From a virus: DNA of 64,000 bases. The stretch is taken from UHGV virus genome UHGV-0049167. The stretch is one strand, 5' to 3'. The notes beneath the pieces are model-generated. The model ran no database searches. It was not told the DNA's origin and saw nothing but the letters and a program-made list of their open reading frames with translations. Positions within the stretch are counted from its first letter, which is position 1; each line of letters opens with the position of its first letter. Positions 12,573 through 60,970 of the stretch are shown here, piece after piece. Both the position numbers and the translations under genes were made by a program.

Positions 12573-12693
12573 AGGTATTTTTAGCATAAATATTAATTAG
12601 TTAAAAATTTAAATAGTAAGATAATCGCAAGATGTTTGTTCTCATATAACTAATATTGTTTATGAAAAGTAATCGATTTCCCGATATTATGGT

Positions 12694-12701
12694 TATTTTT
12701 G
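12694..12701 (+). promoter_or_regulatory. Bacteroides-type -7 promoter box candidate (TAnnTTTG)
   Basis: TATTTTTG 8 nt upstream of the ATG at 12709, inside a ~135-bp AT-rich ORF-free stretch. Confidence 0.3.
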
Positions 12702-12708
12702 CAAACAA

Positions 12709-13764
12709 ATGAATTTTGCCAAATTTTACGATATAAGTGATTGGGTAGAAAAGCCCTACATCAACACAAAAGGTACCAGGAACAAATGTATTGTCATAGA
12801 CCCAGATAGTGGTATTGAATATTATTTCAAAACCTCTATCCACAAAGGTGCTATGGACTACAAGACTGAGTTCTGGTCAGAAATCATAGCTTCCAAAGTT
12901 GGGCAATATCTGAATTTCAATGTGCTGGATTATAACATAGCCAAACATAAGGATGAAGTCGGTTGCCTCTCTATGTCTATGATAAAAGACGGTGAATGCC
13001 TTACGGAGGGTATAAGTCTACTGACAGGATTCGACAATACTTATCGACCGTCAGACAAAGATTCATATTCACAATACACTTTCCATTTCATTGAAGAGGC
13101 CATAAGCAGTTTCGGATTGTCAAAGAACATTGACGATGTTATCAGGACCATTATCTTTGACTCTATAATAGGGAATAGTGACAGGCATCAAGAAAACTGG
13201 GGGTTCATCACGCCTTTTCAAGAAAAAACATTAACAAGGGAGGAGGCAAAAAGTTTTCTTGGAAGATTGAAAGAGCGCATCAAGAAGATACAGGATTCAT
13301 CGCGTGGCAACAACGGAAACGTTCCTTTAGACGTCCACGTCAAGATACGGATTTTGCAAATTGTCGGTAAATACGCTCCGATATATGACAGTGGATGCTG
13401 TCTCGCACGTGAAAAAAACGAAGGAGCCGTAAGGCAAATGCTTAATGACAAAATAATGTTCGACAGTTTTGTCAACCGTGGGCAGTCTGAAATACGTTGG
13501 GACGAAAGTGGGAGAAAGCTAAACCATTTCGAGTTGATAAAGCGCATAAAAGAAAAATATTACGAAGTCGTTACCGATACAATCAACCAAGTCATCGCCG
13601 TTTATGATGAAAATAAGATACATGACATTGTATTTAACATAGACAAGCGCCTTCCTGACGTACTGAAAGCTGACGAACGTTGGGCTTTGTCTGATGACAG
13701 GAAAGAATTGATATGTAGATTGATTGACGAACGTTTTAACAGACTAAAAAACATTATATTATGA
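12709..13764 (+). CDS. HipA-like Ser/Thr kinase family protein
   Basis: 351 aa; catalytic-loop-like IIGNSDRHQENWGF and downstream APIYDSGCCL fit the HipA C-terminal kinase signature; AT-rich gene. Confidence 0.55.
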   Translation: MNFAKFYDISDWVEKPYINTKGTRNKCIVIDPDSGIEYYFKTSIHKGAMDYKTEFWSEIIASKVGQYLNFNVLDYNIAKHKDEVGCLSMSMIKDGECLTEGISLLTGFDNTYRPSDKDSYSQYTFHFIEEAISSFGLSKNIDDVIRTIIFDSIIGNSDRHQENWGFITPFQEKTLTREEAKSFLGRLKERIKKIQDSSRGNNGNVPLDVHVKIRILQIVGKYAPIYDSGCCLAREKNEGAVRQMLNDKIMFDSFVNRGQSEIRWDESGRKLNHFELIKRIKEKYYEVVTDTINQVIAVYDENKIHDIVFNIDKRLPDVLKADERWALSDDRKELICRLIDERFNRLKNIIL

Positions 13765-14432
13765 AAAGATATATAAGACAAATCTACTTGGTATGGAGAC
13801 GAGGTAGAAACGAAAGAAGAATAAAGGTCGGAAGAATTCTCCGTAATAGTACGGAGGGGGTACGGTTCATGTACATGTCAGAAGGAGTCAAGGAAGCAGT
13901 GGAAAAAGGATTCAATATGTATCCTGATTTTCCAGACCCAGGAAAAGTGTACCATAACAACGTGCTTGAAATATTTTCACAGAGGTTGAACAACACCGAA
14001 CGTTCAGATATACAAAAGTATTATGACTATTGGGAAATAAGCCCTGAGATGAAAGATGACAAATATTATGTGCTTGCCCAAACGCAAGGACTTCTGCCGA
14101 CAGACACATTCGAGTTTCTTGCAGAATATTATCCGGTAAAGGATTTGCGTTTTACCAGCGAAATTTGTGGATTGACAAAAATGCAGCTTCCTAACGGAAC
14201 TTTGAAAGAAGGTGATATGCTAAAATGGAAATTGGAGCCAAGTAATCCTTACGATAAATATGCCGTAAAGTTATATAAGGAGAATAAGGAATTAGGATAT
14301 GTTAAATTAATACACAGTAAGGTTTTCCATGATTCAAAATACAAAAAATTCGCTGTAAAGGTAAAAAGCGTAGAACAGAATGGACATATAAACAGGGTTT
14401 TTGTTTCCGTATCCACTATTAATGTCAGGTAA
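13761..14432 (+). CDS. HIRAN-domain protein
   Basis: 223 aa, ATGA-coupled to the kinase gene; C-terminal LEPSNPYDKYAVKLYKENKELGYV matches the HIRAN core motif. Confidence 0.5.
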   Translation: MKRYIRQIYLVWRRGRNERRIKVGRILRNSTEGVRFMYMSEGVKEAVEKGFNMYPDFPDPGKVYHNNVLEIFSQRLNNTERSDIQKYYDYWEISPEMKDDKYYVLAQTQGLLPTDTFEFLAEYYPVKDLRFTSEICGLTKMQLPNGTLKEGDMLKWKLEPSNPYDKYAVKLYKENKELGYVKLIHSKVFHDSKYKKFAVKVKSVEQNGHINRVFVSVSTINVR

Positions 14433-14523
14433 TTCCACTTTCACGATAAAAAGCATTAAGCCCGATTGCCAAATGTGGCGGTCGGGCTTAATCTATCTAT
14501 AAACATAATTAAGACAAAACAAT

Positions 14524-15078
14524 ATGAACTTAAAGAAACTATCACAAAAAGCTTTTGAGACCGCAAAGGCGCACGGATGGCATGATGAAGAACTTCCTGA
14601 CGAAACTTATTTGATGCTTATCATAACGGAGATAGCCGAAGCTGTACAGGCAGATCGCAATAACAGGCACACGGATATAGACCTTTTCAAAGCATTACTT
14701 GAAACATACGCCAAAGATGATGCTGTATTTAAGTATGAATTTGAGACACATATCAAAAACAACGTCGAGGATGAGCTTAGCGACATAATCATACGCTGTC
14801 TTGACCTTGCCGCGCTACGTAATTGCGACCTTTCCCTTGCAAAGGCTGTGACAGACGACAATATTTTTACAGTGAATGACGAGCTGCCAAAATTCGCTTT
14901 CAGGATGTGCTGGATGCTTACGTATGAAGCTGACACCTTGTGCAGCCGACTGAATTGCTGTATTGCTGGCGTCATCGCATACTGCCATCAAAAAGACATC
15001 GACATCGACTTCTTCGTCGAGCAGAAGATGCGCTATAACAGACTCCGCCCATTTAAGCATGGGAATAAGAAATATTAA
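14524..15078 (+). CDS. MazG-like nucleotide pyrophosphohydrolase family protein
   Basis: 184 aa; AHGWHDEE...LMLIITEIAEAVQADR and EDELSDIIIRCLDLAA resemble the EExxE/ELxD helices of phage MazG-like proteins. Confidence 0.5.
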   Translation: MNLKKLSQKAFETAKAHGWHDEELPDETYLMLIITEIAEAVQADRNNRHTDIDLFKALLETYAKDDAVFKYEFETHIKNNVEDELSDIIIRCLDLAALRNCDLSLAKAVTDDNIFTVNDELPKFAFRMCWMLTYEADTLCSRLNCCIAGVIAYCHQKDIDIDFFVEQKMRYNRLRPFKHGNKKY

Positions 15079-15085
15079 ACATATT

Positions 15086-15655: not shown

Positions 15656-16165
15656 CTACCACTGCCAAAGCCTATAATATACGGATATTCCTATGAAAGG
15701 TGTCGGTTTCATGTCTTTCCCTATACCGTAACCTGCGGCAATACCGACGCCAAGGAGCGGACTTTCCTTGTACCTTGTGACAGTTACAGTCTCGTGTCTC
15801 GGATATACAAATATACTGTCAAGATTCGCGCGGAATCCGCTCACGTATGCGGTATAGGTACTGTCCTTATAGACTTTGGAAGTTATAGGCAGTGTCACCT
15901 TGACGCTGTCGCCTGTATTCCCGCCCTTCTCTTCGTATATCGTGTCTTTGCGGCAAGTCACGGGCAACGTCTCCGTAACATACCGTATCACCGTACTGTC
16001 TTTGGGTACAGGATTCAAGAACGGAATGGTGTCTATATATGTAGTCCGTACTGTGTCCTGATTCGTTGTTTTCTTTCCGGCATTACTGCACTGGAGTATG
16101 TTGACGCATAATGATGCGGTCAACAACACCGATACTACCACAAGCAATCCTTTAAATCTTCCCAT
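15656..16165 (-). CDS. putative lipoprotein
   Basis: 169 aa; signal peptide with Cys at LTASLC; last gene of the minus-strand cassette. Confidence 0.45.
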   Translation of the reverse strand: MGRFKGLLVVVSVLLTASLCVNILQCSNAGKKTTNQDTVRTTYIDTIPFLNPVPKDSTVIRYVTETLPVTCRKDTIYEEKGGNTGDSVKVTLPITSKVYKDSTYTAYVSGFRANLDSIFVYPRHETVTVTRYKESPLLGVGIAAGYGIGKDMKPTPFIGISVYYRLWQW

Positions 16166-16247: not shown

Positions 16248-17303
16248 TTATATTAGTGGCTTTAATGATATTATCCTAGCAGATTTGCCGAATATCTTTA
16301 TCAAGACATCCTCGGGCAAGCCTGTGCTTTCCGAAATCATGCTGATTGAATACCCCAATGTGTCCGATACCAGCCTATATGCCTGCTCAAAGACGGTAGG
16401 GCTGTCAATAGGCACTTCGTAAGGTTCTTTCTTATTCCAATGACGTCTGCTGAACTCCATTCTCATAGACTTGTACTTCTCACTTGCAATGGCGTTTATG
16501 TTTTTTGCCTTTTCCAAAAGTGATGCCATGGAAACAAGCCAATACCGTTTCAGCTCAGGGAACTGTCCGAGTCTGACATTGTGCAAGGCGTTTCTGACAA
16601 CTTGGGAGGGGAGAAGGAACTCCGATGCAAAAGCGTTCGCCTCTTTCTCCTTGTCTCTAATGCTGAATACCGGGAAACTTGGGCACTCGTGCATCAGTAT
16701 GTGTCCCAGCTCATGTGCAAGCGTAAACCTTACCCTGTCGTTGCTTCTGTTCCTGTTCACGATGATAAGATGATTGCCTGCGTCAGTTATCAGGGAAACC
16801 CCGTCAAACTCGTCGTTAGGACTGTCCCACATGTAAATGAATACCCCGTTTCGCTCAAGGAATTTGCAAATATCGGATATAGGCGACATGCCGAGCCTGT
16901 ATTTGTTCCTTATGTGCCCGGCAAGTTCCTCCGGGCTTATGCCGTTGTCCATGTCGTAGTATCCAAATGAATAGTCAGGTATCTCGACAAATTCACTAAG
17001 CCAATCAAAACAATACGCAATCAGGGATATTGTCCTGTCTATCTCGTTGCGTGTCTTTACGGTTATGGTAGCCTTTTTCCTGTAATGCTTGCTGTCTACC
17101 TTGTTCACAATATTCATGTCAAGGAATTTCATCGGGAAATCAAGCGTGGACATAATCAAACCAAGCATGTTGTCAGACAGCCCGCCAAACCCCTTTTCGT
17201 ATTTTGACAGGTTGGATTGCGACAGCCCTTTGACTTTTGCCGCGAGTGCGGTTTGCGTGAATCCCCTGTATTCCCTTGCGAATGTAAGCTGCTCACATTT
17301 CAT
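16248..17303 (-). CDS. XRE-family HTH fused to ImmA/IrrE (M78) zinc metallopeptidase domain
   Basis: 351 aa; N-terminal HTH (LTFAREYRGFTQTALAAKVKGLSQSNLSKYEKG); HEXXH in FTLAHELGHILMHE. Confidence 0.7.
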   Translation of the reverse strand: MKCEQLTFAREYRGFTQTALAAKVKGLSQSNLSKYEKGFGGLSDNMLGLIMSTLDFPMKFLDMNIVNKVDSKHYRKKATITVKTRNEIDRTISLIAYCFDWLSEFVEIPDYSFGYYDMDNGISPEELAGHIRNKYRLGMSPISDICKFLERNGVFIYMWDSPNDEFDGVSLITDAGNHLIIVNRNRSNDRVRFTLAHELGHILMHECPSFPVFSIRDKEKEANAFASEFLLPSQVVRNALHNVRLGQFPELKRYWLVSMASLLEKAKNINAIASEKYKSMRMEFSRRHWNKKEPYEVPIDSPTVFEQAYRLVSDTLGYSISMISESTGLPEDVLIKIFGKSARIISLKPLI

Positions 17304-17352
17304 AAGACATTGCTTTTATAGTTCTTTTTTTAACAGACGGTGTGCCCTGCTG

Positions 17353-17946
17353 TTATTCTGCTTTCTTTTCTCCTGTCTCTTTCTTTTTCAGGCGGACAAC
17401 AATCTCCTGCGTGTCTGTATTGGCAACCGGTACATTCACACCGTCTTCCATATAGGAAGTCCATTGAACCCCATCGTCATACAAGACAATTCTCGGGTTT
17501 ACGAGCTGCCCGAAACCGTCCTTTGTATATCCGAAAATCAATATCGGCTCTTCCTTGCCTTCATCGCCTTGGAAAAGCGGTAATTGGTATTGGTTGACAA
17601 TCGAATCTGAAAGTATTGTCGGAATGTAAGACGGCTTGTCATTCTTGTTCAATTTCTTGATGAGCATGAGCACACCGTTCCATCTGAATATTATCCTTCC
17701 GTATTTGCCTTTGTTCCAGTTCTCGGGAAATGTGAGAATGAAACTCTCTGTTATTTTTGCGTTAAGCAAAGGACCTACAAGCCTTGTCCTTGCTTCAGGT
17801 ATGGTCATATTTACTTCTTCATTGTAATTTGCCAAACCTGCGTAATACGCCTTGAAGATGTCCTCATAACAATCTTTTAGCAGTTCCAACGCTTCTTTTT
17901 TCGTGATGCGTTTTCGTTTCTTAAAATTATTATTTATATTTGCCAT
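17353..17946 (-). CDS. hypothetical protein, upstream partner of the XRE/ImmA gene
   Basis: ORF table start 17970 is GTG; first ATG at 17946 (MANINNNFKK...); same strand, 46-nt gap to the ImmA gene. Confidence 0.45.
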   Translation of the reverse strand: MANINNNFKKRKRITKKEALELLKDCYEDIFKAYYAGLANYNEEVNMTIPEARTRLVGPLLNAKITESFILTFPENWNKGKYGRIIFRWNGVLMLIKKLNKNDKPSYIPTILSDSIVNQYQLPLFQGDEGKEEPILIFGYTKDGFGQLVNPRIVLYDDGVQWTSYMEDGVNVPVANTDTQEIVVRLKKKETGEKKAE

Positions 17947-18165
17947 ATAATTTAAATTTAAGACGGGCACACCGTCTGTAATTTCAGCCCTTATTGCCGT
18001 AAGGGCTTCTTATATGGTGCAAAGATATATAATTTCCCCAAATAATTGTATATAATTTTTCGAAAATATTGTATATTTAACGGCAACCCACAATGTCAAA
18101 GAACGCCTTTACGACGGTTGCAAATTCCGCAACCGTCGTCAGTTATTTCCATTTTGGAAACGAGC

Positions 18166-18759
18166 TCACACTTTCCCCAAGTACGCCATGATGCCTTCCA
18201 CGTGCAGCTCCACAATGGTTCGCTTGCCTTTCTCGCTCAGCAGATAGTCCACGTCCTCCCGGTTGTCCTGAAAAAGGTTTTCAGTCAGGACTGCGGGACA
18301 ATTTGTGTCACGGCATATTGCGAGATTCTGTGTCCAATATGGCTCATCCTGTGAGTATCTTCGGACTTTCAGTCCTTGTGTCTCTGCCGCGTCAATCAGA
18401 CGGCAGGCGAGCTCTTTGCTCTTCTTTGAAGCGTTGCGCGAGACATAAGCCGACCATCCTCTGGCGTCATGCCATTTGCCGTCGGCACCAGCCGCGTTAC
18501 AGTGTATTGAGACAAGTATCGCTTTCTTTCCTGTCGCGGCATAAATCCTGTTTGCCCTTTCGCACCGCTCTTTCAGGCTGATGTCGTTTTCCTCGGGCAC
18601 AATGCGCTGCGCGTCATATCCACGTGCCTTGAGTTCCCTTTCAAGACGCACTGCAATCTCACGGGCGTATGCGTATTCGAGCAGGCGTCCGTCAGGCGAC
18701 CGTTTCCCTGCGGTGTCCTTTCCGTGTCCCGCATCAAGTATAACTTTAAAATTTTCCAT
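18166..18759 (-). CDS. N-acetylmuramoyl-L-alanine amidase (Amidase_3 family) endolysin
   Basis: 197 aa; VILDAGHGKDTAGKRSPDG and SIHCNA motifs typical of Amidase_3; adjacent to holin-like genes. Confidence 0.8.
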   Translation of the reverse strand: MENFKVILDAGHGKDTAGKRSPDGRLLEYAYAREIAVRLERELKARGYDAQRIVPEENDISLKERCERANRIYAATGKKAILVSIHCNAAGADGKWHDARGWSAYVSRNASKKSKELACRLIDAAETQGLKVRRYSQDEPYWTQNLAICRDTNCPAVLTENLFQDNREDVDYLLSEKGKRTIVELHVEGIMAYLGKV

Positions 18760-23430: not shown

Positions 23431-24823
23431 CGTAGCCGTTTATATCTGTGTCTGCCTCTATATATGCTCTGAAACCGTTCGCTTCCTGCGGTTCCTGAAG
23501 ATGATACACAAGACCTCCTGTTCCAAGCGTGTATGCTCCGGCAGGCACTGTTGTTTTGCAGTAGAATCCCTTCATTGTGACCCCATTATATGTCACCGGC
23601 AGCGGTTCCGTCTCCCATTGTGAGACATTGGCTATGATATACTCGGAAGCGGGACTGTCACCGCCCGGTTTAAAAAGATACGGCTTGCCAGCCTCAATTG
23701 ATGTGACTTTGGTAAAGTGCAAGGTTTTCCCTTCTATTGAAGTATATTCCGAAACCTCCGTCCCTTCACCGAATACGCCCGCTATGTCCGTCACGTTGAA
23801 CGGCAGGCACAAAGAGTGCCAGACACCCGCACCGAACGTCCTTTTAAGCGTAACGGACACTGTCAGCCCGAGCTTTGCGCAGCTCTCTATCACGGTCTGA
23901 TTATAATGTCCGTCAGACGACTGGTCAAGAGTGACGGCAGAGAGTGGGGTGGAGGAGGCTGTCAGTCCGGCAATGTTCTCCGGAGGATATGTGAAATACC
24001 ATCGGAAACCTTTCATCGTGTTCACGCTCACGTTTGAATGGTACAGCTGTCCCGAGCTGAACAGATAGCATCCCTCGGGCAGAGCGTATATCTTGCCGTA
24101 TGAAGGATGGAACTTAAGTGAGCCGTAAGCAGGCTCAGGCGCGGCAGACACGACAGAGTCTATGTCCTCGAACACATACACACTGTCTGATGGCGGGTCA
24201 GCTGTCGGGACGACGACATAGCATTGTCCGGCATCCATGCCGTCCGTCACTTCGGTAAGCCGCAGGTTCGGGTCGTCTGTCAGACCTCCGTATGCGTAAA
24301 CTTTTGTCCCCTCACCGAACGCAGCCGCAATCTGTGCGGTGCTTAAAGAGAACGGCAGTACGAACGTGTTGTAGATGTCCTTCTTGACACCGCTTCGTTT
24401 TACCTTTACCGTCAGTCCGGTGCCTTCCACCGCGTTTACGGGTGTCTCGGACTCCTCGTCAAGAATCAGCTCGGATGTGCTGTCACGCACGCACGCCTTA
24501 TCCGGCAGGCTCTCGCATTCAAGGCGCATCCGCAGCCCTTTGTCAATTTCCAGCATATGGAGCATGACGCTTCCTTCGCGCCTCTCGTATCTCGACCAAG
24601 TATGCGTCACGGTCATTCCCATGCCCGGCAGTCCCGCATACAGTGTGATACCGCTTTCCGGCTCACCGTCTATCTGTAATATTCCCTCACCGCCATGTGT
24701 CCATTCCGCATGCCACATTCCTCCGGTTTTGGAAAAGTTCAATGTTGTCAATGTCATATACTGTCCTCCTGTTTTTTTATCATAAATATATGTTTCCGTT
24801 CGTGTCCGTGTCATCATCGTCAA
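23414..24823 (-). CDS. putative tail protein
   Basis: 469 aa, immediately downstream of the giant fibre gene. Confidence 0.4.
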   Translation of the reverse strand: MTMMTRTRTETYIYDKKTGGQYMTLTTLNFSKTGGMWHAEWTHGGEGILQIDGEPESGITLYAGLPGMGMTVTHTWSRYERREGSVMLHMLEIDKGLRMRLECESLPDKACVRDSTSELILDEESETPVNAVEGTGLTVKVKRSGVKKDIYNTFVLPFSLSTAQIAAAFGEGTKVYAYGGLTDDPNLRLTEVTDGMDAGQCYVVVPTADPPSDSVYVFEDIDSVVSAAPEPAYGSLKFHPSYGKIYALPEGCYLFSSGQLYHSNVSVNTMKGFRWYFTYPPENIAGLTASSTPLSAVTLDQSSDGHYNQTVIESCAKLGLTVSVTLKRTFGAGVWHSLCLPFNVTDIAGVFGEGTEVSEYTSIEGKTLHFTKVTSIEAGKPYLFKPGGDSPASEYIIANVSQWETEPLPVTYNGVTMKGFYCKTTVPAGAYTLGTGGLVYHLQEPQEANGFRAYIEADTDINGYGEPEQ

Positions 24824-27800
24824 TGCGATTAATCTGTATCATCTGCACCCTGTCATAATTCATGTATACGGCTGTTGTCGTTATCATGCTGCCGTAGTAT
24901 ACGGTGCCGCTTCCCGGTTGTACGATTCCGATGTTCGAGAATCTGTATACATTGCGCGAGCACCATTGTCTGGAGAAATCCACCTTTTCCGCATAGTCAT
25001 CCTCATATCGCGTATAGTCCATTGGCGGTGTGTCCATAGGCGAGCCTATCATGAACGATTCCGGATTGTCCTGCGCCCACATTCCTGTGACAGCCTGTGC
25101 CGTGGTCACATTACCCTGCTCCATGAACCATCTGCCGTTCGCGGCTCTTGCAATCTCCGGAGTGGAGGCGTAGTCACCGCTGAGATATGTGTCGTTTACG
25201 CGCCCTGCAAGATACATGTACAAAGGTGTTTTCGTGTACACATGACCATATTGGAATATGGTGTTCATTATCTGTTTGTTGCCAACGATGTCGCCTACGG
25301 TGGAGAATGTGGCCCCTGTCAGCTGCAGGCGTCCGTATTTGCTGCTGGTCTCCCACCGTTCTTCCGAGACATCCTTGCCGGACAGTCCCCACGGTCCGAG
25401 GTCATAAAGGAACGTACCGTCATTGTCATAATAGGACAGTACCATGTATGAGCCGTTATATCCCATTTTGATGTTGGTCACACCGTTAGGGTTCTTTACC
25501 TCAATCAGTCCTCCCTTTATCTCCACATGCCCCTGTCCTTCGTCCATCGTGCGGAGCATCACACCTGTAAGGGTGCCCGCCTCGTCGATTGTGGTGACTG
25601 TCTCGCCGGAGTTGTTCTGTATCTCGAAGTTGTCGGCAGTGACCTTTATGCGCTTGTGTTCAATGTCTATCCCTGTCGCCTGCAGCTCGTCGCGCGTGAT
25701 TGTCTCCGAACGCCAGTCGGTCGCCTCGCTGCCTTTCTCCAGCTTCACTCCGCATATCCAGACCTCTCCCTGTGCAGAACTGTCCGGCATGAGCCGTGCC
25801 GCTATCAGGCTCTTCCCTCCGCTTACGTCATTGCGAGTGCTCCATGTCACCTGATAACGGTTCCATCCGCTTTCAAGCGTGAACTGCACGAATCCGTCTG
25901 TCACACCTGTCTGGTTCTTCGTCCCCGGACTTGTGACCCAGTCGGTGCAGTTCGGATAGAAGTACGAGCCGATGCTGCCTGTGCCGCGCGCCCAGAATGA
26001 GAGCGTATACTGTACGCCCGGCTCGGGCACCACGTTGCGCCATGTGATGACGTCCTTGTATGATGTCCCGGCTTCGTTCACACCGTGTGCCACGCTTATT
26101 TTTTCTCCGTAAGGTGTCGTGTATGCTCCTGCCTCTACGGTATCCTGTACGGTGCATTGGCTGAAGTCCGATGTTCCTGGAAGAAGATTCGGTCTTTTAA
26201 GCCTGTCCTCCGCGCTGAGTCCCCAGTCTGTCGCGTCCGCACCTGTCTCTATCTTGGGACGCGACACGGACGAGTATCCTGATGATATGCCCTGTATATA
26301 CAGGTTACACTGCTCTACCGACGCCACAGCCTTGTCCTGTATCCTGTGTGTGGAGCTTATGCGTCCCTCGAACGTGTCCGTGGATGTTATCTGCCTCCAT
26401 GTCCCGAGATACTGCGTACTGCCGTCGGCATACCGTATCATGGGCTCCATGCCGATACGTCTGTTGCCTGATGCTGCCGGAACCGCAGATACGGTCTTGA
26501 CAAGACATGATACGGTTATTGTCTTTCCGCGCAGGCTTGACACATCCCCGATTGTGTAGACCTTGTTCCCGTTCCCTGTCAGGAATATGTCAGGAGTGGT
26601 CACCATGTTTCCGTCCTTTGCCCCAAGATAGCCGACTTTAAGGCTTATGCTGTCCGTCTCAGCCTTAATCTGCGATGAGAGTGCCATGGACGATACAGTG
26701 AAGGACAGGCGGCAGCTCACACTGCGGGTCTCCCCGCCCAGCGTTGCCTGTGCCGTAATCTGTACCCATCCCGCTCCGTATGGCACCGAACCTCCCCAGT
26801 CTGCCGTATATGTCCCTATTGCGGTTATTGTAACCTGTGCCCCGTTGCGTGACGCAAGACAGTGCATAGGCTCTATGGCGGTAATTGTGACAGTCATCTC
26901 GCGCGTGCCGAGCCATGCGCGCAGACGTGATGTCGCATCCTGCATGCTCACCACACCGTCACTGTCAGCCTCCAATGTTATGGCGGCAGGGTCAAGTGCC
27001 CATGAGAAGCCGTCCTGCCCGTCCGTGCCGGGTTCACCGTCACTTCCGTCCGCTCCGTCCTCACCGCGTATCCGTGTCCACTTATATGAGGTAACGCTTG
27101 TCGGGTCATATGAGTTGAAGTCTACGCATTGCCCGAGCCACGCGCCCGGTGTCTCACCGTTGTTTGCTGTGAACGTCTTTCCCCCGTCGTCGGAATATTT
27201 GATGTGAAGGTAGCTTGTCTTTCCGTCCGTACCGTTGGTTCCCGGTATTCCCTGCTCCCCATCATACCCTTGGAAGCGTGACCACGTGTAGTCCGAAGGG
27301 TCGTCGCTGTCTGCCTCCGTGAAGTCAACGTATGTGCCGATGTAGAGGTTGGGAACTTCTGACATTGGAGTCCCGTTGGAGTTTGCCGAGTATTTAACAT
27401 GGAAATATGTCGTACGACCGTCCTCTCCTGCGGGTCCCGGAACGCCCTGCTCCCCCTTGTCTCCTTTTTCTCCGGTATCACCCTTTATCTTTGACCATTT
27501 ATAATCGGACGGTGTTCCGCTGTCTGTAGGATTCGTGTCTGTAAGGACTCCAATCCAGTCACCGCTGTCCTCTCCGTTGTTTCCGGTAAAGGTGACGCCT
27601 CCGTCGTTAGAGTATTTGATATGGAGATAATATGTCGTGCCGTCAGTCCCATTCACGCCCGGCAAGCCCTGTTCTCCCTGTATGCCTTCAAATCTTGACC
27701 AAGTGTAGTCAGATGCATCAGTACTGTCTGTTTCTGTAAAATCGACGTAAGTACCTATGTATTTGTCAGGCGTCTCGGTCATGGGCGTACCGCTCGCGTT

Positions 27801-30800
27801 CGCAGAATACTTTATGTGGAAGTAGCTTGTACGTCCGTCCGCACCGGGTGTTCCGGGTATGCCTTGCTCGCCTTGCGGTCCTTGTAATCCTTGAAGCCCC
27901 TGCTCGCCTCTATCACCTTTGTCTCCTTTGTCGCCCTTTATCTTCAACCAAGTGTATTCTGACGAGTCTGTGCTGTCGTCAGCGTTGGTGTCTGTCATGA
28001 CGCCAATCCACGCGCCCGGTGTCTCACCGTTGTTTGCTGTGAACGTCTTTCCCCCATCATCGGAGTATTTGATGTGAAGATAATATGTAAGCCCGTCCAC
28101 ACCGTTGGTTCCCGGTATTCCCTGCTCCCCATCATACCCTTGGAAGCGTGACCACGTGTAGTCCGAAGGGTCGTCGCTGTCTGCCTCCGTGAAGTCAACG
28201 TATGTGCCGATGTAGAGGTTGGGTGTCTCGGTCATGGGATTTCCGTTCTCGTTTGAAGAATATTTCACATGGAAGTATGTGGTCTTTCCGTCATGACCGG
28301 GTGCCCCGTCTTTACCGGCTACACCGGGAATACCCTGCTCTCCTTGCGGACCCTGCGGTCCCTGTATGTTTCCGGCATTCACCCACTTGTCACCGTCCCA
28401 CACCCATAAGTCTCCGTCTATGAGCCATGCGTCACCGACCGCGTTGCCGTCCTGCGGGAGTTCGGAAGAGTCATTCTTCGAACCTTTCAGATTGAATGAA
28501 GTCCCGTCCTCTCCACGGAATTTGCTCCATGTATAGTCGGAAGGATTGTCGCTTTCCTGTGCGCTCTCTTTGTTTACGGCTATGCCTATATATTTTGTCG
28601 TGTCTGAAGGGGTCTGATACATAGGCTCACCGTCCGGACTGTCAGAGTAGGCAATCCATGTATAGAGAGTCTCACCGTCCTCGCCCTTTGCTCCCGGCAC
28701 TCCGTCCTCGCCTTTTATCTCTGACCAGGTATAGTCCGATGGATTGTCGCTTTCCTGTGCGGTATTCTTGTTATATGCGAATCCAATGTATTTCTTTCCG
28801 GAAGGGTCGTTGGATATGCCTCCTCCTTCAGCGGTGTCGGAATATCTTATCCATGTGTAAAGTGTCTTCCCGTCCTCACCGGACGGTCCTGGTACACCCT
28901 GTGGTCCCATGTCACCTTTCTCACCCTGCTGTCCGTCCATACCTCTGAAACGTGCCCATGTATAATCAGAGGGGACATCGCTCGCTGTAGGGTTAAAATC
29001 CACGCGTGTACCGATAAATACATCCGGAGTCTCACTCATGGGCACACCGTCAGGATTCGGTGAATATCTTATGTGAAAATATGTGGTTTTCCCGTCTGCT
29101 CCGTCTTCTCCAGCCGGACCCTGTATTTTTCCTGCGTTTGCCCATGCGCTGCCGTCCCATACCCACAGATAGCCGTTCACGAGATACGCGTCTCCTGTGC
29201 TGTTCCCTGTTGGCGGCAGCATGCTCTCGTCATCAACGCTTCCCTTCACAGTGAATGACGTGCCGTCCTTTCCGTCAGTACCTTTAATCCTTGACCATGC
29301 ATAGTCGCTGTAGACGAGAGCCACGTCGCTCTCCGTGCGGTCTGTGCATATGCCGAGCATGAGCCAGTCTTTTGCCGTGCTCTGGGATTTGTCCTTTGTC
29401 CAGTCGTCCGGACCGTTTCCCCATGCAAGGTGCGTGTAGCTGACAAGACCGGAAGTGTCCACATCCAGCTCGCCTCTTATCTTATTGCCGTTAGCCGCGA
29501 ACCATGTCGTGCGGTACTGGCTTAGAGAAAAACTTGTGATTCCGTTGTATTGCGCGAATGACGGACTCTCCAGCTCGGTATCCGGAGTGGAGTGGGCGGC
29601 TATTATTATCGCATGGCTGCGCGCTGTGTCGTCACCACGGTGTCCGCACAGACAAACGCTGTCACCCTCTGCAGGCTCAAGGCTGTCAGCCGCGCACGTG
29701 GCTTCAGACACTTCAATCCAATGGCACTTTCTGTCCTCACCGTCAATGTTCCGTGTTCCGCTCCCTGTTGCCGTGACAAGTCTCCACCATAGTCTGTTTC
29801 CTGCATCATATGATGTCCCCTCGGCAAGATTGGATGTCATTGCCAGAGCCTGGTCTCCGACCTTCCACATGTTCTGCACGGCTCTGCCGTCGCTGTCCTC
29901 CGCCAGCCACCACAGACGCCATGCTCCGCTTATTCTTTCGACAGAGCGTACCGTGCAGTTAGCAGCGGACAGTATCAGTTGACCTCCGACGCTGTTCAGC
30001 TCATCTATGACAAGCTCGAAGAAATGTGCCCTTCCTGTCACGGTCAGCGTTTTCATTGTGGCTTCGTCGGCAAGAAGTTTCTTCAGCCGTGCGGTACCGT
30101 CCGCATCTATGCCGTAGTCTCCGTCTCCCACAAGCAGCCCTTTGAGGAATGTTATAATATCCAAGGCTGTGTCCGGACTGTCTTTCCGCAGAAAATACTT
30201 CGCGCATTGTGCTAAAATGTCACCACGCATGCCATAAGTCAGGGATGTAAGTATCTCTGTTTTTATGGAATCGAGCTGTGCTCTGAATGAGGATTGAGAC
30301 ACGGTCAGGGTGTCTGTTAAATCCACACTTATTTCATAAAGTATGCTATCATCGGCTTTACAAGTATAGTTGCTGACATACAGAAGATGCTCTTCTTGAT
30401 TATATCTTACTGTCAGACGTGTATTTTCATTCAGCAATGAGGTGAAGTCCTCATTTAATGCCAGATATACACGGGAAAATTTTATTGAATATGTGAATTT
30501 CTCATCATTATTCCCTTTCATGTAAGCAATAAGAGCCGCATCCAGTCTTTTTTCCGCTTCCCGTATGTAGGATTCAGGAAGAGAAATGCCAGTTATGACA
30601 AATGTATCGCCTATTGACGGACGATATCCTTGTGCCGCGTTCGGCATAATGACACCAAAGGTATCTGTTTCTTTTTTTACGGCTATCCATACTTCATATT
30701 CGCTGGTGTCCTGCTGGCGTGAAACGTAACTGTTTGTATCACGTGAAGGCAGGATATAGTCTCCTTCATATTTGTCCGCATTAGAACTGTTGACCTTGCG

Positions 30801-32942
30801 AAGATTGCCTTGTGCGTCTGTCATGACAGGGTTATAGAATTTGTATCTGTCACCATCGGCATACTTGTCCACCCCGATAACGAAACGGCATGCGGCGCAG
30901 TTGCCGCTTGTCATCTCTATTGCAGCCTCTTCGCTTTCTAATGCATGCTCAAAAATATTGAAGCCTCCACTTCCGTTATATACATGTAGTTTTATATAGA
31001 AATATGAATGAAGGTATTCGTCACTATTGTCTTTAAGGACATCGCTATCATCCGTATCAAACCGTATGTCAGCTATTTCACCTATCAACTGACCTTGAAT
31101 GTTTTTTATCCCTTTTATTGTCGGGACTATATCTTCAAATGAAGTCGTCCCTTCGTGAGGGTTCAATTCATTGTATACATTATTAAATATATATTTATTT
31201 CCTGATTCATCTTCATCTTCATATGTATTATTGACTGCATTATAGTAGCGTTCCGCTCCTCCACTTTCTCTGTATATAGAGGGCATCAGGCTCTGAGAGG
31301 GAGTTATCCACTCTCTTCCTGTAATATTAATTATGGCTGGTGTGTGGTCACCGCTGTCCTCCACAACATTCCATTCACCGCCTGAGAAATCCAAATGCGA
31401 AGGCGCATACGGAACATTGTTTACATCAGACAGCGTTATTCCGCTTTTACTGTATGCGATGTTATTCCCATCTCCATATGAGAAATAATACAGTTCTCCG
31501 CCACTTTTCTGATATGTTATGGATGATTTTGCATTTAACGTCATTCCTATAGTCGCCTGGCTGTTGGTCGCTCCGCTTCCTGAGAAAATGGCGTAAGCAG
31601 TCCCTTTAATCACAACTTGAAACCATCCGCTGGCATGGAAGGTATATTCATAGTCCTTCCAACCTGACAATATTTCTATTTTATCACTTATAGAATCATC
31701 CTCATTCGGATTATAGTCGTCTCTCCATATTCCAATACTTATTGTATTTTTAAGGTTTCTGTCCCCTCCGTAGCTATTTGACGATACTTTCTGCCATGAA
31801 AGTGATAAATCTGCGTCACCGCTGATTTTTCTGAAAGTCAAAAAGGATTCATTGAAAACAAACCGAAGTTTGTCTCCCTCTTGTGCATTTATTTTCAGTC
31901 TGAAAGATATCGTGATATAGGTGTTGCCTATACCTGTTCCAAAATAGAATATGTCTGTAGCCTCCCTGTTGCTTATTACTGTGGGGCTATATGCATTATA
32001 AAAAGGAGCAGTCTGTCCGATGTCTGCGCTGGCATCCGTGTTTGACACCTTTTTAAGTCTATATGCGGTATATGGGGAACTGTTGTATTTTAGTATCTCA
32101 TTTAAGGAGATATCTGCTACTTCAGATTTGTCAATGTTCTCTGTGTCGAAACTCGCGTTGCCCTCCGCACTCATGTTTGGATAGTACCATGGCAAATTTT
32201 TTGTGCCTCCAGTACCGGTTATCCTCGTGATAATCCTGTAATTGGCATTTGTTTTCTGAATAGACAACAGAGCATTGTCATTACCATATTCTATCGGAGT
32301 TGTTATTACATTCTCTGTATATCCTACGTGGCAGGTCTTCCCTGTCCAATAATAGGCGAGTCCATATACATTATATATATCCTGTAGAGCCTCTGCAATG
32401 AACTTGTCTTCTATACTGACATCTTTGCCCTCAGAAGTTATGCCTTCGTCAATGACAATATGGAAACCTTCTTGTTTGTCTTTATTATATAGACCGCTGT
32501 AAATCAATGAATCGTTGAGCCGGGCAACAAACTCGTGTACATCACCGAAGAAATGTACTTTAGATGTGTTGCTTCTGTATCGGTCTTTATATTGGGCTTC
32601 AGTATCTTCTGTTACCACATCAAGGAAATACACGTTTTCAAGTATCTCCCTTTCACTTACAAATGTGACCTCATGTTTGTATGTTATCTCAGAATTGTCT
32701 TTGGATGATGACGGCTTTTGCCTTATATAATACTTCTCTCCGCCAAATTCTATATACTCGTTTAATGTCCATTCATTGTCAAGACATCTTGGGAATTTCA
32801 ATGTAGCCGTGAAGGTCGGTGCGCCGCCCATGCGTTGTGCGTCATAGGTGTATGTACCTATGACCGCTTTTTCTGTAGACGAAGGAAAATATTCTTTCAC
32901 TCCGTTTGTGTCACGCATTATGTATAAGCTCTTCTTCTCCAT
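24780..32942 (-). CDS. giant tail-fibre-like protein with collagen-like Gly-X-Y tracts and tandem repeated modules
   Basis: single 2720-aa ORF; repeated modules of the form GKTTYFH(I/V)KYS...DPSDYTWSRF...G-X-Y triplets...TYYLHIKYSDDGGKTFTANNGETPGAW; DNA-level direct repeat about 870 bp apart. Confidence 0.7.
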   Translation of the reverse strand: MEKKSLYIMRDTNGVKEYFPSSTEKAVIGTYTYDAQRMGGAPTFTATLKFPRCLDNEWTLNEYIEFGGEKYYIRQKPSSSKDNSEITYKHEVTFVSEREILENVYFLDVVTEDTEAQYKDRYRSNTSKVHFFGDVHEFVARLNDSLIYSGLYNKDKQEGFHIVIDEGITSEGKDVSIEDKFIAEALQDIYNVYGLAYYWTGKTCHVGYTENVITTPIEYGNDNALLSIQKTNANYRIITRITGTGGTKNLPWYYPNMSAEGNASFDTENIDKSEVADISLNEILKYNSSPYTAYRLKKVSNTDASADIGQTAPFYNAYSPTVISNREATDIFYFGTGIGNTYITISFRLKINAQEGDKLRFVFNESFLTFRKISGDADLSLSWQKVSSNSYGGDRNLKNTISIGIWRDDYNPNEDDSISDKIEILSGWKDYEYTFHASGWFQVVIKGTAYAIFSGSGATNSQATIGMTLNAKSSITYQKSGGELYYFSYGDGNNIAYSKSGITLSDVNNVPYAPSHLDFSGGEWNVVEDSGDHTPAIINITGREWITPSQSLMPSIYRESGGAERYYNAVNNTYEDEDESGNKYIFNNVYNELNPHEGTTSFEDIVPTIKGIKNIQGQLIGEIADIRFDTDDSDVLKDNSDEYLHSYFYIKLHVYNGSGGFNIFEHALESEEAAIEMTSGNCAACRFVIGVDKYADGDRYKFYNPVMTDAQGNLRKVNSSNADKYEGDYILPSRDTNSYVSRQQDTSEYEVWIAVKKETDTFGVIMPNAAQGYRPSIGDTFVITGISLPESYIREAEKRLDAALIAYMKGNNDEKFTYSIKFSRVYLALNEDFTSLLNENTRLTVRYNQEEHLLYVSNYTCKADDSILYEISVDLTDTLTVSQSSFRAQLDSIKTEILTSLTYGMRGDILAQCAKYFLRKDSPDTALDIITFLKGLLVGDGDYGIDADGTARLKKLLADEATMKTLTVTGRAHFFELVIDELNSVGGQLILSAANCTVRSVERISGAWRLWWLAEDSDGRAVQNMWKVGDQALAMTSNLAEGTSYDAGNRLWWRLVTATGSGTRNIDGEDRKCHWIEVSEATCAADSLEPAEGDSVCLCGHRGDDTARSHAIIIAAHSTPDTELESPSFAQYNGITSFSLSQYRTTWFAANGNKIRGELDVDTSGLVSYTHLAWGNGPDDWTKDKSQSTAKDWLMLGICTDRTESDVALVYSDYAWSRIKGTDGKDGTSFTVKGSVDDESMLPPTGNSTGDAYLVNGYLWVWDGSAWANAGKIQGPAGEDGADGKTTYFHIRYSPNPDGVPMSETPDVFIGTRVDFNPTASDVPSDYTWARFRGMDGQQGEKGDMGPQGVPGPSGEDGKTLYTWIRYSDTAEGGGISNDPSGKKYIGFAYNKNTAQESDNPSDYTWSEIKGEDGVPGAKGEDGETLYTWIAYSDSPDGEPMYQTPSDTTKYIGIAVNKESAQESDNPSDYTWSKFRGEDGTSFNLKGSKNDSSELPQDGNAVGDAWLIDGDLWVWDGDKWVNAGNIQGPQGPQGEQGIPGVAGKDGAPGHDGKTTYFHVKYSSNENGNPMTETPNLYIGTYVDFTEADSDDPSDYTWSRFQGYDGEQGIPGTNGVDGLTYYLHIKYSDDGGKTFTANNGETPGAWIGVMTDTNADDSTDSSEYTWLKIKGDKGDKGDRGEQGLQGLQGPQGEQGIPGTPGADGRTSYFHIKYSANASGTPMTETPDKYIGTYVDFTETDSTDASDYTWSRFEGIQGEQGLPGVNGTDGTTYYLHIKYSNDGGVTFTGNNGEDSGDWIGVLTDTNPTDSGTPSDYKWSKIKGDTGEKGDKGEQGVPGPAGEDGRTTYFHVKYSANSNGTPMSEVPNLYIGTYVDFTEADSDDPSDYTWSRFQGYDGEQGIPGTNGTDGKTSYLHIKYSDDGGKTFTANNGETPGAWLGQCVDFNSYDPTSVTSYKWTRIRGEDGADGSDGEPGTDGQDGFSWALDPAAITLEADSDGVVSMQDATSRLRAWLGTREMTVTITAIEPMHCLASRNGAQVTITAIGTYTADWGGSVPYGAGWVQITAQATLGGETRSVSCRLSFTVSSMALSSQIKAETDSISLKVGYLGAKDGNMVTTPDIFLTGNGNKVYTIGDVSSLRGKTITVSCLVKTVSAVPAASGNRRIGMEPMIRYADGSTQYLGTWRQITSTDTFEGRISSTHRIQDKAVASVEQCNLYIQGISSGYSSVSRPKIETGADATDWGLSAEDRLKRPNLLPGTSDFSQCTVQDTVEAGAYTTPYGEKISVAHGVNEAGTSYKDVITWRNVVPEPGVQYTLSFWARGTGSIGSYFYPNCTDWVTSPGTKNQTGVTDGFVQFTLESGWNRYQVTWSTRNDVSGGKSLIAARLMPDSSAQGEVWICGVKLEKGSEATDWRSETITRDELQATGIDIEHKRIKVTADNFEIQNNSGETVTTIDEAGTLTGVMLRTMDEGQGHVEIKGGLIEVKNPNGVTNIKMGYNGSYMVLSYYDNDGTFLYDLGPWGLSGKDVSEERWETSSKYGRLQLTGATFSTVGDIVGNKQIMNTIFQYGHVYTKTPLYMYLAGRVNDTYLSGDYASTPEIARAANGRWFMEQGNVTTAQAVTGMWAQDNPESFMIGSPMDTPPMDYTRYEDDYAEKVDFSRQWCSRNVYRFSNIGIVQPGSGTVYYGSMITTTAVYMNYDRVQMIQINRIDDDDTDTNGNIYL
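27138..28230 (-). repeat. two direct-repeat copies (about 220 bp each, about 870 bp apart) inside the giant gene; coordinates approximate
   Basis: near-identical DNA starting CCACGCGCCCGGTGTCTCACCGTTGTTTGCTGTGAACGTCTTTCCCCC at about 27138 and 28008, and again ACCGTTGGTTCCCGGTATTCCCTGCTCCCCATCATACCC... in both copies. Confidence 0.6.
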
Positions 32943-57695: not shown

Positions 57696-58238
57696 TTATT
57701 CATCTCCTGAGAGGTAGTCCTCTATCGTCGTGTCGCTTACGCTAAACGTGCAGCCGTACACGTTCTTGAACTTAAATGGAACCTCCATGTATATTATGCC
57801 CTTCAGGGTGTCTGTGACAGGCTCACTCTTGTCCGACAGATACATCAACACCTTGCGCTGTCTTGCAGTGTCCCTGTATATGACGAGACCGCCGCTTACA
57901 TACTCAACAAAATTGTCATATACCTCACCGGCGGCTTTTATAGCTGCCTGCCTCGATTCTTCATTCGTGACATCACGTCCCAATGGGTCAAAAAAGTATA
58001 GGGTCAGCGTTATGTCTGTCTGCTCATATACCGACAACGGTGACACGTAAACTCTCGCCTTGTCACTCTCTGCATATGTCTCCGTATATATGCCTTTCTG
58101 AACGCCATAGGCGCGCAATCCTGTACACGACTTATACCTAAGCCCCTTGAAATGCTCCTCCAAGTCTACTTCATTGCCAAGTGACCAACCCGATTCTGAC
58201 TGAACAGCCTTCTTTATGTAAAAATGGTATTGAGGCAT
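57696..58238 (-). CDS. hypothetical protein (first gene of minus-strand early module)
   Basis: 180-aa ORF starting next to the ORF-free region. Confidence 0.4.
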   Translation of the reverse strand: MPQYHFYIKKAVQSESGWSLGNEVDLEEHFKGLRYKSCTGLRAYGVQKGIYTETYAESDKARVYVSPLSVYEQTDITLTLYFFDPLGRDVTNEESRQAAIKAAGEVYDNFVEYVSGGLVIYRDTARQRKVLMYLSDKSEPVTDTLKGIIYMEVPFKFKNVYGCTFSVSDTTIEDYLSGDE

Positions 58239-58340
58239 GTATACATTGTTTAATTAGACTACCCAAATATATACATTTACAATGCTTATACATTATTTTT
58301 TGCTGAAAATCAAACGTTTTTGTCATACAAGAACGCCCTT

Positions 58341-58361
58341 GTGTTGCATTTGTGTTGCATT
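58341..58361. repeat. tandem direct repeat GTGTTGCATT x2
   Basis: GTGTTGCATT-T-GTGTTGCATT read directly. Confidence 0.5.
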
Positions 58362-58460
58362 CTCGCTATTCCCTCCATCATAATTGATGGACTTGTGAAT
58401 TAAAAAAAAATAAAAAAAATTTGAGAATGGGTGGCATATGTTCGAACCTTGCCCTATAGC

Positions 58461-58468
58461 GGGGGGGG
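58461..58468. repeat. homopolymeric G8 tract in non-coding DNA
   Basis: AGCGGGGGGGGATACC read directly. Confidence 0.6.
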
Positions 58469-58644
58469 ATACCCTTTATATAAGAGTACGGATACCCACA
58501 AACGTGTAATATTTCGTTATGTCGCTTTTGTGCGCTGCTTTCACGTATGCAAATACACGTGTTTATTTATATGCCTTTAATCGTGCATTATTTGCGTGCA
58601 TAACGTCCGTATGTATGCAAATACGTAAATGTACCATATCTTTA

Positions 58645-58685
58645 TTAACGCGTATATATAAATATATTTATATAGTACGCGTTAA
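58645..58685. promoter_or_regulatory. 41-bp near-perfect palindrome (TTAACGCGTA arms around an AT-rich self-complementary core)
   Basis: TTAACGCGTATATATAAATATATTTATATAGTACGCGTTAA; outer 10-bp arms are exact reverse complements. Confidence 0.5.
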
Positions 58686-59062
58686 CTAAAGATATAAAAT
58701 CTTTTCGCGAATGCTCCGTACATTGCCTTTAAACAGTCCATAATAACACACACATTGCAACAACTGCAAAGCCGTGCGTTAACAGCCCGCCAATACATGG
58801 AGCGATAAGGGGCACACGCGCGTAACTTAAAGGCGTCAGAAGGCACGCAAACCGTGTTACTGCAAAGGTTTTAAGGTGTTTGTACTCTTATTTTGCATTA
58901 ACTGTAATACCTTGATTGTCAATGTGTTAAAGTGTTGTTTATTACATGAAAATAAACGGGATATAATTTTGTCATTTCAATATTTATTACTACATTTGCA
59001 ATGTAAGAGGTACGGAGAGAAACCCAAAGGCTTACAAGCGTTCTTTTTGGATATTGGGCAAT

Positions 59063-59097
59063 AAAAAAGCCCCTGCAAAGTCGCAATTTGCAGGGGC
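59063..59097 (-). terminator. intrinsic terminator (minus-strand orientation)
   Basis: 10-11 bp perfect stem CCCCTGCAAA / TTTGCAGGGG with 7-nt loop; A6 on the plus side gives a T-run after the stem on the minus strand. Confidence 0.55.
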
Positions 59098-59609
59098 GGC
59101 GCAAACGCAAAAGCGCTGCGAGTTCATCTACTGAACGGGCACAAAGTTAGTGATTTACTTTTGATTGTACAAGAAAAAGCGAAAGTAAATTCAATTTCCA
59201 AAGAAAAAAGAATGAGACGAGCAAAGGACCCGAAAAGGTCGAGCCATATAAACAACGTGCGAAAGTAATGCACTGGTACGGGCTTTACACCTACACAAAC
59301 AGCCCCCGAAAGCCGTTGAGGTGAACACGGCAAAGGAAGTCGCAATACTTCCGGGCGTTCATTGAAAAGGTATGATTTTGCGAATAACCCGCCAATGTGG
59401 GTCGCTAATAGCGAGGCGGTCTATATTGGTGTATGATACAGGGTGCCGAATGGGAAATGTAGTGCGGTAGTGTAGCGGCAATCGGTTTGCGCTGCACGAG
59501 TTGCTAATAGGCCGGTAGGACGGAAACAAACAAATTACCGTGTGAGAGAGAGAAACGCGCCGGGGTTGTGTATCCGGGGCGGAACTGTTTGGACGGCTTG
59601 CACGGAACG

Positions 59610-59643
59610 AAAAAACCGCCTGCAATAATGCAGACGGAGGCGG
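59610..59643 (-). terminator. intrinsic terminator candidate (minus-strand orientation)
   Basis: stem CCGCCT / AGGCGG enclosing an internal CTGCA-ATAA-TGCAG hairpin; A6 upstream on plus gives T6 after the stem on minus. Confidence 0.45.
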
Positions 59644-59768
59644 ACGGCCTTAACCGTCCAAATTCAAAAGCGTACTTATATGCGAATTTATTTTGTGTTT
59701 AAGTTGTGGCGTATTCGGTTACTCTTTATTGAGTTCCGAATAACTCTATTTAGATAATAGAGCCACGG

Positions 59769-59818
59769 CGCGGCGGTAATGTTAACGGCATTTGCCGCCG
59801 CGTTTCGCTTTTGTTCTG
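59769..59818 (+). terminator. intrinsic terminator candidate (plus-strand orientation)
   Basis: 8-bp GC stem CGCGGCGG / CCGCCGCG followed by TTTCGCTTTTGTTCTG. Confidence 0.45.
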
Positions 59819-60798: not shown

Positions 60799-60970
60799 AC
60801 TACGGAGACAGGGAAGGAACTTTACTCCTACAAAGTCGTAAAAAGGGGTGGCAAGTACATTATAATTTCACCATACGACGGGCGGAAGATAGGAACGCTT
60901 CAATAAATTCACTTATTTTGTGGATTATGTAAAATAAAAGAATTATATTTGCACCAGCAAAGACAACGCT

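Follow-up and report, generated by a model that had tools for sequence, protein, structure and literature searches.

The hipIN genes were defined by Gerdes, Baerentsen and Brodersen (2021; PMC8262856), who classed them as a toxin-antitoxin (TA) module in which HipI, a short kinase without the N-subdomain-1 of HipA, is followed by HipN, a downstream protein combining a HipS-like N-terminal and a HIRAN C-terminal domain, and who named the fused version of the two HipL. The HipI subclades published there belong to the Actinobacteria, Firmicutes and Proteobacteria/Cyanobacteria, with kinases of 279-321 amino acids and none from the Bacteroidota, and it was proposed, as a suggestion stated to be untested, that the HIRAN domain detects the ends of phage DNA and switches on the kinase, resulting in abortive infection (PMC8262856). 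Furthermore, HipA-HIRAN operons of actinobacteria adjoin deoxydinucleotide-specific nucleases (diDNase; PMC11706625), and a pair composed of a HipA-like (A) and a HIRAN (B) protein is listed in PADLOC as PDC-M03. Here, we describe a pair of overlapping genes in the virus genome UHGV-0049167, of which 64,000 nucleotides were analysed (the window, to whose full length all positions refer). By its profile matches, predicted folds and gene order, the pair is a phage-borne Bacteroidota member of hipIN / PDC-M03, a kind of system that has been predicted but is experimentally uncharacterised.

A preliminary description of this locus had presented the pair as a plausible uncharacterised module for superinfection exclusion, abortive infection or host takeover. 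Experimentally uncharacterised it is, but it is not new, its architecture and the underlying hypothesis both being found in PMC8262856 and the pair being catalogued as PDC-M03; the module is as such not reportable as a novel system, and the label 'HIRAN protein' says too little about the second gene. We consider it most likely, at a probability of roughly 0.55, that the pair constitutes a kinase-based toxin-antitoxin moron of the hipIN type serving in abortive infection or superinfection exclusion.

The HipI kinase and its HipN partner

The open reading frames (ORFs) of the pair and their motifs are located as follows.

12709..13764, + strand: ORF1, hipI, a short HipA-superfamily Ser/Thr kinase of 351 amino acids, putative toxin
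12766..12786, + strand: Gly-rich (ATP) loop of HipI, T20-K-G-T-R-N-K26, residues invariant in the alignment
13180..13197, + strand: catalytic motif of HipI, D158-R-H-Q-E-N163, by alignment to CtkA and HipA
13222..13368, + strand: family-variable insertion of HipI, ~45-50 amino acids (residues ~172-220), from model confidence and alignment
13375..13395, + strand: Mg2+-binding motif of HipI, A-P-I-Y-D227-S-G, by alignment to CtkA
13761..13764, + strand: ATGA start/stop overlap of hipI and hipN, translational coupling
13761..14432, + strand: ORF2, hipN, 223 amino acids
13761..14135, + strand: N-terminal domain of HipN (residues 1-125), similar to HipS and HipA N-subdomain-1, putatively kinase-neutralising
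14136..14432, + strand: C-terminal HIRAN domain of HipN (residues ~126-220), with N162-P-Y-D165 at 14244..14255

The ORF positions and motifs quoted in the preliminary description were all recovered, with ORF1 containing IIGNSDRHQENWGF at residues 153-166 and APIYDSGCCL at residues 223-232, and ORF2 containing LEPSNPYDKYAVKLY at residues 158-172. The match of ORF1 to the Pfam HipA_C domain falls below the family threshold (22.2 against 30.5 bits; E-value: 1.3e-4), so that its identification as a kinase rests on the PADLOC PDC-M03A profile (PDLC04340; E-value: 8.1e-60) and on the HipA-superfamily fold, which together bear out the original call of a HipA-like kinase. Neither HipI nor HipN was matched by an NCBIfam model, while the predicted structure models of both proteins are confident. 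A PDB profile search with HipI recovered CtkA (JHP0940) of Helicobacter pylori (PDB 3akj; E-value: 1.2e-13), which is the closest solved structure, and the window HipI is structurally closer to this protein than to HipA. The D158 motif aligns to D155-R-H-N-G-N of CtkA and the Mg2+-binding motif to A-P-I-F-D179-C-G, and D158 and N163 are in register with D309 and N314 of HipA (D309-G-H-A-K-N314) in a weak hhalign alignment (E-value: 0.08) to a reference sequence identical to PDB 2wiu_A. No significant HipA alignment spans the activation-loop region of HipI. CtkA is described as a proinflammatory kinase that is translocated into host cells; we know of no report of a HIRAN or HipS partner for it, nor of its acting as a TA toxin.

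Across 55 HipI homologues, residues T20, G22, T23, R24, K26 and K41 are invariant, as are D158, R159, H160, Q161 and N163 and, in the Mg2+-binding motif, I225, Y226, D227 and G229, and HipI is apparently a catalytically competent HipA-superfamily kinase. By analogy with HipA and HipT, T20 and T23 are candidate autophosphorylation sites. Residues 18-21 have low values in the predicted local distance difference test (pLDDT), suggesting that the Gly-rich loop is flexible. The HipI model has no N-terminal domain ahead of the kinase core, and the equivalent of HipA N-subdomain-1 is therefore absent. Between the catalytic and Mg2+-binding motifs lies the insertion at residues ~172-220, modelled as one helix followed by a disordered stretch (pLDDT <50 at residues 197-216); it has no consensus in the family alignment, is lacking from CtkA, to which it remains unaligned, and accounts for the greater length of the window HipI relative to the 279-321 amino acids of the published kinases.

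For ORF2, the HIRAN assignment made in the preliminary description is supported by a Pfam match above threshold (29.9 against 24.7 bits), and 52 of 55 HipN homologues likewise exceed this threshold; the PADLOC PDC-M03B profile (PDLC04349) also matches (E-value: 1.5e-30). The N-terminal domain of the same protein is HipS-like by fold. The similarity was not detected by sequence in a phmmer search of HipN residues 1-125 against the PDB, and Couple_hipA gave no match in a Pfam scan of all 55 family members, while hhalign of the HipN N-terminal domain against HipA gave a weak alignment (E-value: 0.11) whose aligned segment is in register with HipA residues 12-34. In the HIRAN domain, N162-P-Y-D-K aligns with the NPYDK motif of HLTF, which we take to form the 3'-OH pocket. 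No helix-turn-helix (HTH) ORF flanks hipI on either side, there being no HTH match to ORF2 in Pfam or NCBIfam and no + strand ORF of at least 20 amino acids in the upstream region; the absence of a HipB-type partner, as originally noted, is thus upheld.

The pair shares with hipIN its bicistronic organization with the kinase gene first and no HipB, a HipI which lacks N-subdomain-1 and carries the Gly-rich loop, with Thr residues alongside, near its N-terminus, and a downstream protein with HipS-like N-terminal and HIRAN C-terminal domains. It differs in its Bacteroidota origin and phage carriage, in the 351-amino acid length and internal ~45-50-amino acid insertion of HipI, and in its very remote sequence similarity to HipA. 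Both hidden Markov models of PDC-M03 match adjacent genes with a 4-nt overlap; PDC-M03 is, however, a defence candidate only, and the window pair is phage-encoded rather than part of a host defence locus. In HipL, a single polypeptide from a monocistronic gene, the kinase domain is followed by the HipS-like and then by the HIRAN domain, as in the window, where the three are divided over two ORFs joined by the ATGA overlap. In HipBST (Escherichia coli O127 and Legionella), which comprises the kinase HipT, whose target is TrpS, the antitoxin HipS and HipB, the genes are tricistronic and a stand-alone HipS is encoded upstream, whereas the window pair has two genes and no HipB, with the HipS-like domain downstream and fused to HIRAN. 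From canonical hipBA of E. coli K-12 the pair is set apart by the absence of a HipB HTH protein and of N-subdomain-1 in the kinase, by gene order and regulation, and by the lack of significant sequence similarity.

The linkage of the two genes is widely maintained. Among 80 species-level Bacteroidota loci retained from 154 hits in a genome survey, a kinase gene lies directly upstream of hipN in 77, two of the three exceptions offering no room for one, and the gap between the genes is within ~9 nt in 70 of these 77 loci. Similarly, in the 21 IMG/VR loci with a HipN relative, the kinase gene ends at the hipN start wherever room allows. The translational coupling first read from the ATGA overlap at 13761-13764 was confirmed in the window, and the proposed association of the genes is met with elsewhere, in 77/80 genome loci and every viral locus with room. 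A single family, phrog_26212, covers both proteins. Relative to the cassette of locus L126, which shares 89% and 96% amino acid identity with HipI and HipN, the ratio of non-synonymous to synonymous substitution rates (dN/dS) is 0.12 for hipI and 0.08 for hipN; both genes are under purifying selection. The L128 cassette (79% identity) was not used for the hipI estimate because its synonymous sites are saturated. Identity to the window proteins across the Bacteroidota is higher for HipN (48-57%) than for HipI (33-48%), the putative antitoxin being better conserved than the putative toxin, which is the reverse of usual type II TA pairs. The HipN profile retrieves 997 representative clusters at 50% identity, and hipIN / PDC-M03 is as such widespread.

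Some departures from the standard arrangement were observed. A metagenomic protein of 560 amino acids (P0245) is an end-to-end fusion in which residues 1-335 correspond to HipI (36% identity) and residues 335-552 to HipN (50% identity). Its junction falls exactly at the HipN start methionine ('...KKII-M-YPHIK'), as though the ATGA overlap had been read through, and the protein may be a genuine HipL-like fusion or else an artefact of sequencing or gene calling. At L055, HipI was not detected in the ~8 kb available upstream of hipN, while L034/L035, L049 and L086 yielded partial kinase matches only; the kinases at these loci may have decayed or been replaced.

Acquisition, expression signals and neighbourhood of the cassette

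The cassette, its presumed expression signals and the gene that follows it are positioned as listed below.

12580..14522 (1,943 bp): inserted cassette, comprising promoter region, hipI, hipN and hairpin, from the empty-site comparison with L118
12573..12708, + strand: AT-rich, ORF-free upstream region, 136 bp, GC content 0.22
12694..12701, + strand: TATTTTTG, TAnnTTTG box of the -7 type of Bacteroidota promoters, located 7 nt ahead of the ATG, with putative promoter activity
14455..14492, + strand: hairpin downstream of hipN, 17-nt arms and 4-nt loop, from folding z-score and inverted repeat
14524..15078, + strand: ORF3, MazG-like pyrophosphatase of 184 amino acids, resident phage gene outside the cassette

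The boundaries of the insert are provided by a closely related phage that lacks it. L118 (IMG/VR contig 3300045988_136180) is 94-99% identical to the window on both flanks, its homology ending at position 12579 and restarting at 14523, which delimits the insert as 12580..14522, in near-exact agreement with the coordinates of the preliminary description. In place of the cassette L118 has ~40 bp, such that only 56 bp separate the upstream gene from mazG. The cassette ends were found to carry neither direct nor inverted terminal repeats and no target-site duplications. The elevated AT content, which had been judged by eye, was computed here: the GC content of 12573..14523 is 0.368, compared to 0.469 upstream and 0.460 downstream, and is the lowest value for any 1951-bp segment of the 64 kb (mean 0.459; sd 0.038; z -2.4). 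At third codon positions, ORF1 has a GC content of 0.43 and ORF2 one of 0.37, compared to 0.63-0.69 in the two upstream genes, and the cassette is richer in AT than its flanks at 13/13 other loci. The hipIN cassette is a separately acquired, autonomous moron.

The preliminary description had further held the moron to be separately transcribed. The acquisition stands on the empty site of L118 and the GC content; the features cited for the transcription are present, and separate transcription would follow from these. The AT-rich stretch ahead of hipI (GC 0.22) contains no + strand ORF of at least 20 amino acids, and the TAnnTTTG box and downstream hairpin are both in place, the hairpin arms extending to 14492. 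TAnnTTTG occurs across the window at chance frequency (55 found against 45 expected), and the motif alone was accordingly rejected as evidence, with only its positional conservation across cassettes being counted. It is found ~7-30 nt before the kinase ATG in at least seven upstream contexts (L001, the L002 group, the L009 group, L018, L019, L126 and L128), the upstream sequences of which are otherwise unrelated. The position of TATTTTTG 7 nt from the ATG suggests a leaderless or very short-leader hipI mRNA. No conserved operator-like repeat was found upstream of hipI.

The hairpin (arms 14455-14471 and 14476-14492; inverted repeat I3) has a predicted folding free energy of -29.1 kcal/mol (z -6.6), equalled by 0/200 shuffles. 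It has no U-tract, which is why the terminator scan does not call it, and it is likely a transcription stop or an RNA-stabilising element. Other cassettes have unrelated hairpins at the equivalent place 3' of hipN, several of them with T-runs, and together with the conserved position of the box these indicate that the cassette brings its own expression signals. Scans for sigma-70 promoters and intrinsic terminators gave no enrichment over shuffles, the consensus models being ill-suited to Bacteroidota, and an Rfam scan of 12300-15300 returned no match.

The product of ORF3 is a MazG-like pyrophosphatase (phrog_9236; E-value: 1e-49), whose gene had tentatively been assigned to the same block as hipIN. 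This assignment is unsupported, and mazG was rejected as a cassette component: L118 has the gene despite its empty site, none of the 80 genome loci has it, and between phages it is more divergent than hipIN. Its GC content (0.43) is above that of the cassette, and the hairpin stands between it and hipN. A mazG-like gene also lies 3' of hipIN in four further phage backgrounds (L126/127, L128, L129 and L130), where MazG is 34-55% identical to the window protein beside 79-96% identity for hipIN. The 89% nucleotide homology with L126 spans 12618 to 14668 and extends ~145 nt into mazG, and the similarity of the gene to its L118 counterpart is patchy (14523-14819, 85% identity; 14979 onwards, 98.6%); these breaks of homology within mazG mark the gene as a mosaic. 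We read mazG as a mosaic gene resident in the phage, whose 5' end (14523..14668) provided the recombination arm on the right-hand side, which would make the slot upstream of it a recurrent landing site. In E. coli, the mazEF-mazG operon likewise places a TA pair beside MazG. The likeness to that operon and to the actinobacterial diDNase clusters lies in a TA or hipIN-like pair alongside a nucleotide-hydrolysing enzyme, whereas in the window the intervening hairpin, the differing GC content, the presence of mazG without hipIN in L118 and the lack of co-inheritance set the arrangement apart.

The window represents a tailed phage with large terminase, portal, major head and tape measure proteins and an Amidase_3 endolysin (18166..18759). 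A megablast of positions 1-25000 against 50,697 GenBank phages yielded no match, and no integrase was found among the window ORFs tested. An identical kinase is located in a 229-kb contig, and in one relative, genes for an integrase and a resolvase lie past the late genes together with host genes. The integration of these relatives points to a temperate lifestyle, and we infer the carrier to be a temperate phage of gut Bacteroidales. In the window, the cassette is inserted between the early/replication block and mazG; elsewhere, it is located at the end of the early block in other phages, at a prophage end with lysis genes on one side and the integrase on the other, or as a lone insert among housekeeping genes.

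Further inserts and unusual features were observed in the window and its relatives. An intein lies within a DNA methylase in the early region of L107 (976..3108) and a NUMOD4/HNH homing-endonuclease gene in that of L117 (4636..5148), indicating that the early block is a hotspot of mobile inserts. At 16248..17970 on the - strand, a two-gene unit is found between the Amidase_3 endolysin gene and a DUF6808 gene (15656..16165), encoding a 205-amino acid product without family match and an HTH_3/Peptidase_M78 protein matching PADLOC RmrA (E-value: 1e-58), phrog_2439 ('transcriptional regulator') and, below cut-off, the NCBIfam spr1629 repressor/antitoxin. In related prophages the Amidase_3 gene directly abuts the DUF6808 gene, and the unit is missing from L115, whose HipI is identical to that of the window. 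This makes the unit probably a second, independent moron, which either resembles RosmerTA or is a regulator of the ImmA/IrrE type. An ORF of 2,720 amino acids (24780..32942, - strand), which matches PHROGs of the tail-fibre, host-range and collagen-like kinds many times over, encodes an unusually large tail-fibre or receptor-binding protein. Lastly, ~3 kb at 58238..61252 contain no ORF of at least 120 amino acids on either strand; the corresponding region of relatives, past the late genes, holds resolvase and integrase genes.

Possible roles of the cassette

For the proposed function in abortive infection or superinfection exclusion, the following mechanism can be envisaged. HipI would be an active Ser/Thr kinase without the 'lid' that N-subdomain-1 forms in HipA, and the translationally coupled HipN may provide this lid in trans through its HipS-like domain, keeping HipI inactive in the way that HipS restrains HipT. 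HipN's HIRAN domain is predicted to bind free DNA 3' ends. Such ends, arising from incoming or replicating foreign phage DNA or from DNA damage, or else the loss of HipN, would free the kinase, which might then arrest growth by phosphorylating a host factor that is essential, such as, by analogy, an aminoacyl-tRNA synthetase. With a promoter of its own driving expression in the lysogen, the cassette would thereby cause abortive infection or superinfection exclusion of competing phages, with prophage stabilisation as a secondary or alternative benefit. The occurrence of the pair at prophage ends and as a lone insert fits a mobile TA or defence gene pair.

Several points weigh against this function. 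The position of Y72 in HLTF, presumably one of two aromatic residues stacking on the 3' base, is occupied by Leu143 in HipN. A DNA-end-triggered toxin would also sense the replication and packaging ends of the prophage itself, and no mechanism of self-protection was identified. None of the chromosomal copies examined lies in an obvious defence island, CtkA, whose solved structure is the nearest, has no known role as a TA toxin, and the similarity of the HipI family to bona fide HipA is not significant (hhalign E-value: 0.08). Furthermore, no experimental work on hipIN, HipL, PDC-M03 or HIRAN kinases was found in the literature searched, in which they appear only in PMC8262856, the diDNase paper and annotation mentions.

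A more specific form of the same idea is speculative. Here, HipIN in the lysogen would be a DNA-end-gated immune sensor in which HIRAN captures foreign 3' ends, the HipS-like clamp is released and translation is shut down, while the recurrent position of hipIN just ahead of a mazG-like gene in several unrelated Bacteroidales phages may reflect a functional coupling, which could involve signalling by nucleotides or alarmones or serve to protect the carrier phage itself, with a parallel in the dinucleotide nucleases of actinobacteria.

The strongest competing explanation, although an unlikely one, is that hipIN functions as an addiction module that mainly stabilises the prophage, or any other element carrying it, and takes no part in the sensing of other phages; loss of the element would leave a labile HipN to decay and the kinase to arrest growth, with HIRAN only tethering the complex or aiding autoregulation. 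A toxin gene placed first and followed by a coupled partner conforms to classical TA logic, as does the classification as a TA module by Gerdes et al. (PMC8262856), and the pair is found in prophages, adjoining integrases at their ends, and as a lone insert among housekeeping genes. HIRAN is, however, not a sequence-specific operator binder, and an operator-like repeat is not conserved upstream; the conservation of HipN exceeds that of HipI, an uncommon finding for a simple labile antidote, and PADLOC lists the pair as a defence candidate. Stabilisation and defence are, moreover, not mutually exclusive.

Less probable still is a role in the lytic cycle, with HipI phosphorylating host or phage proteins in the manner of T7 Gp0.7 while the phage itself infects or is induced, for host takeover or self-regulation. 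HipN would tie this activity to the appearance of phage DNA ends, and MazG would cooperate by resetting the pools of nucleotides or alarmones. The location of the cassette at the end of the early/replication block and on the same strand would suit such a function, as would the mazG-like gene 3' of hipIN in at least four phage backgrounds and the structural proximity to CtkA. Against this, the near-identical L118 has no cassette, which is therefore dispensable for the lytic cycle; the pair is common in chromosomal locations outside phages, where no mazG accompanies it; it is insulated from the early operon by a promoter box and a hairpin of its own; and the far greater divergence of MazG than of hipIN between phages indicates that they were not co-transferred. 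That the genes are an inactive passenger, either a decaying remnant or a pseudokinase pair, is highly improbable: the sub-threshold HipA_C score and the truncated or absent kinases at L034/35, L049, L055 and L086 are outweighed by two intact ORFs, catalytic residues that are all invariant, a dN/dS of ~0.1, the exact HipI protein in 27 data blocks and confident structure models for both proteins.

Variants of one temperate gut phage with the cassette (the window, L001 and L115-L117) and without it (L118) occur naturally, with boundaries that are exact to the base. These variants represent a ready-made system for the first functional test of hipIN / PDC-M03 in Bacteroidales.

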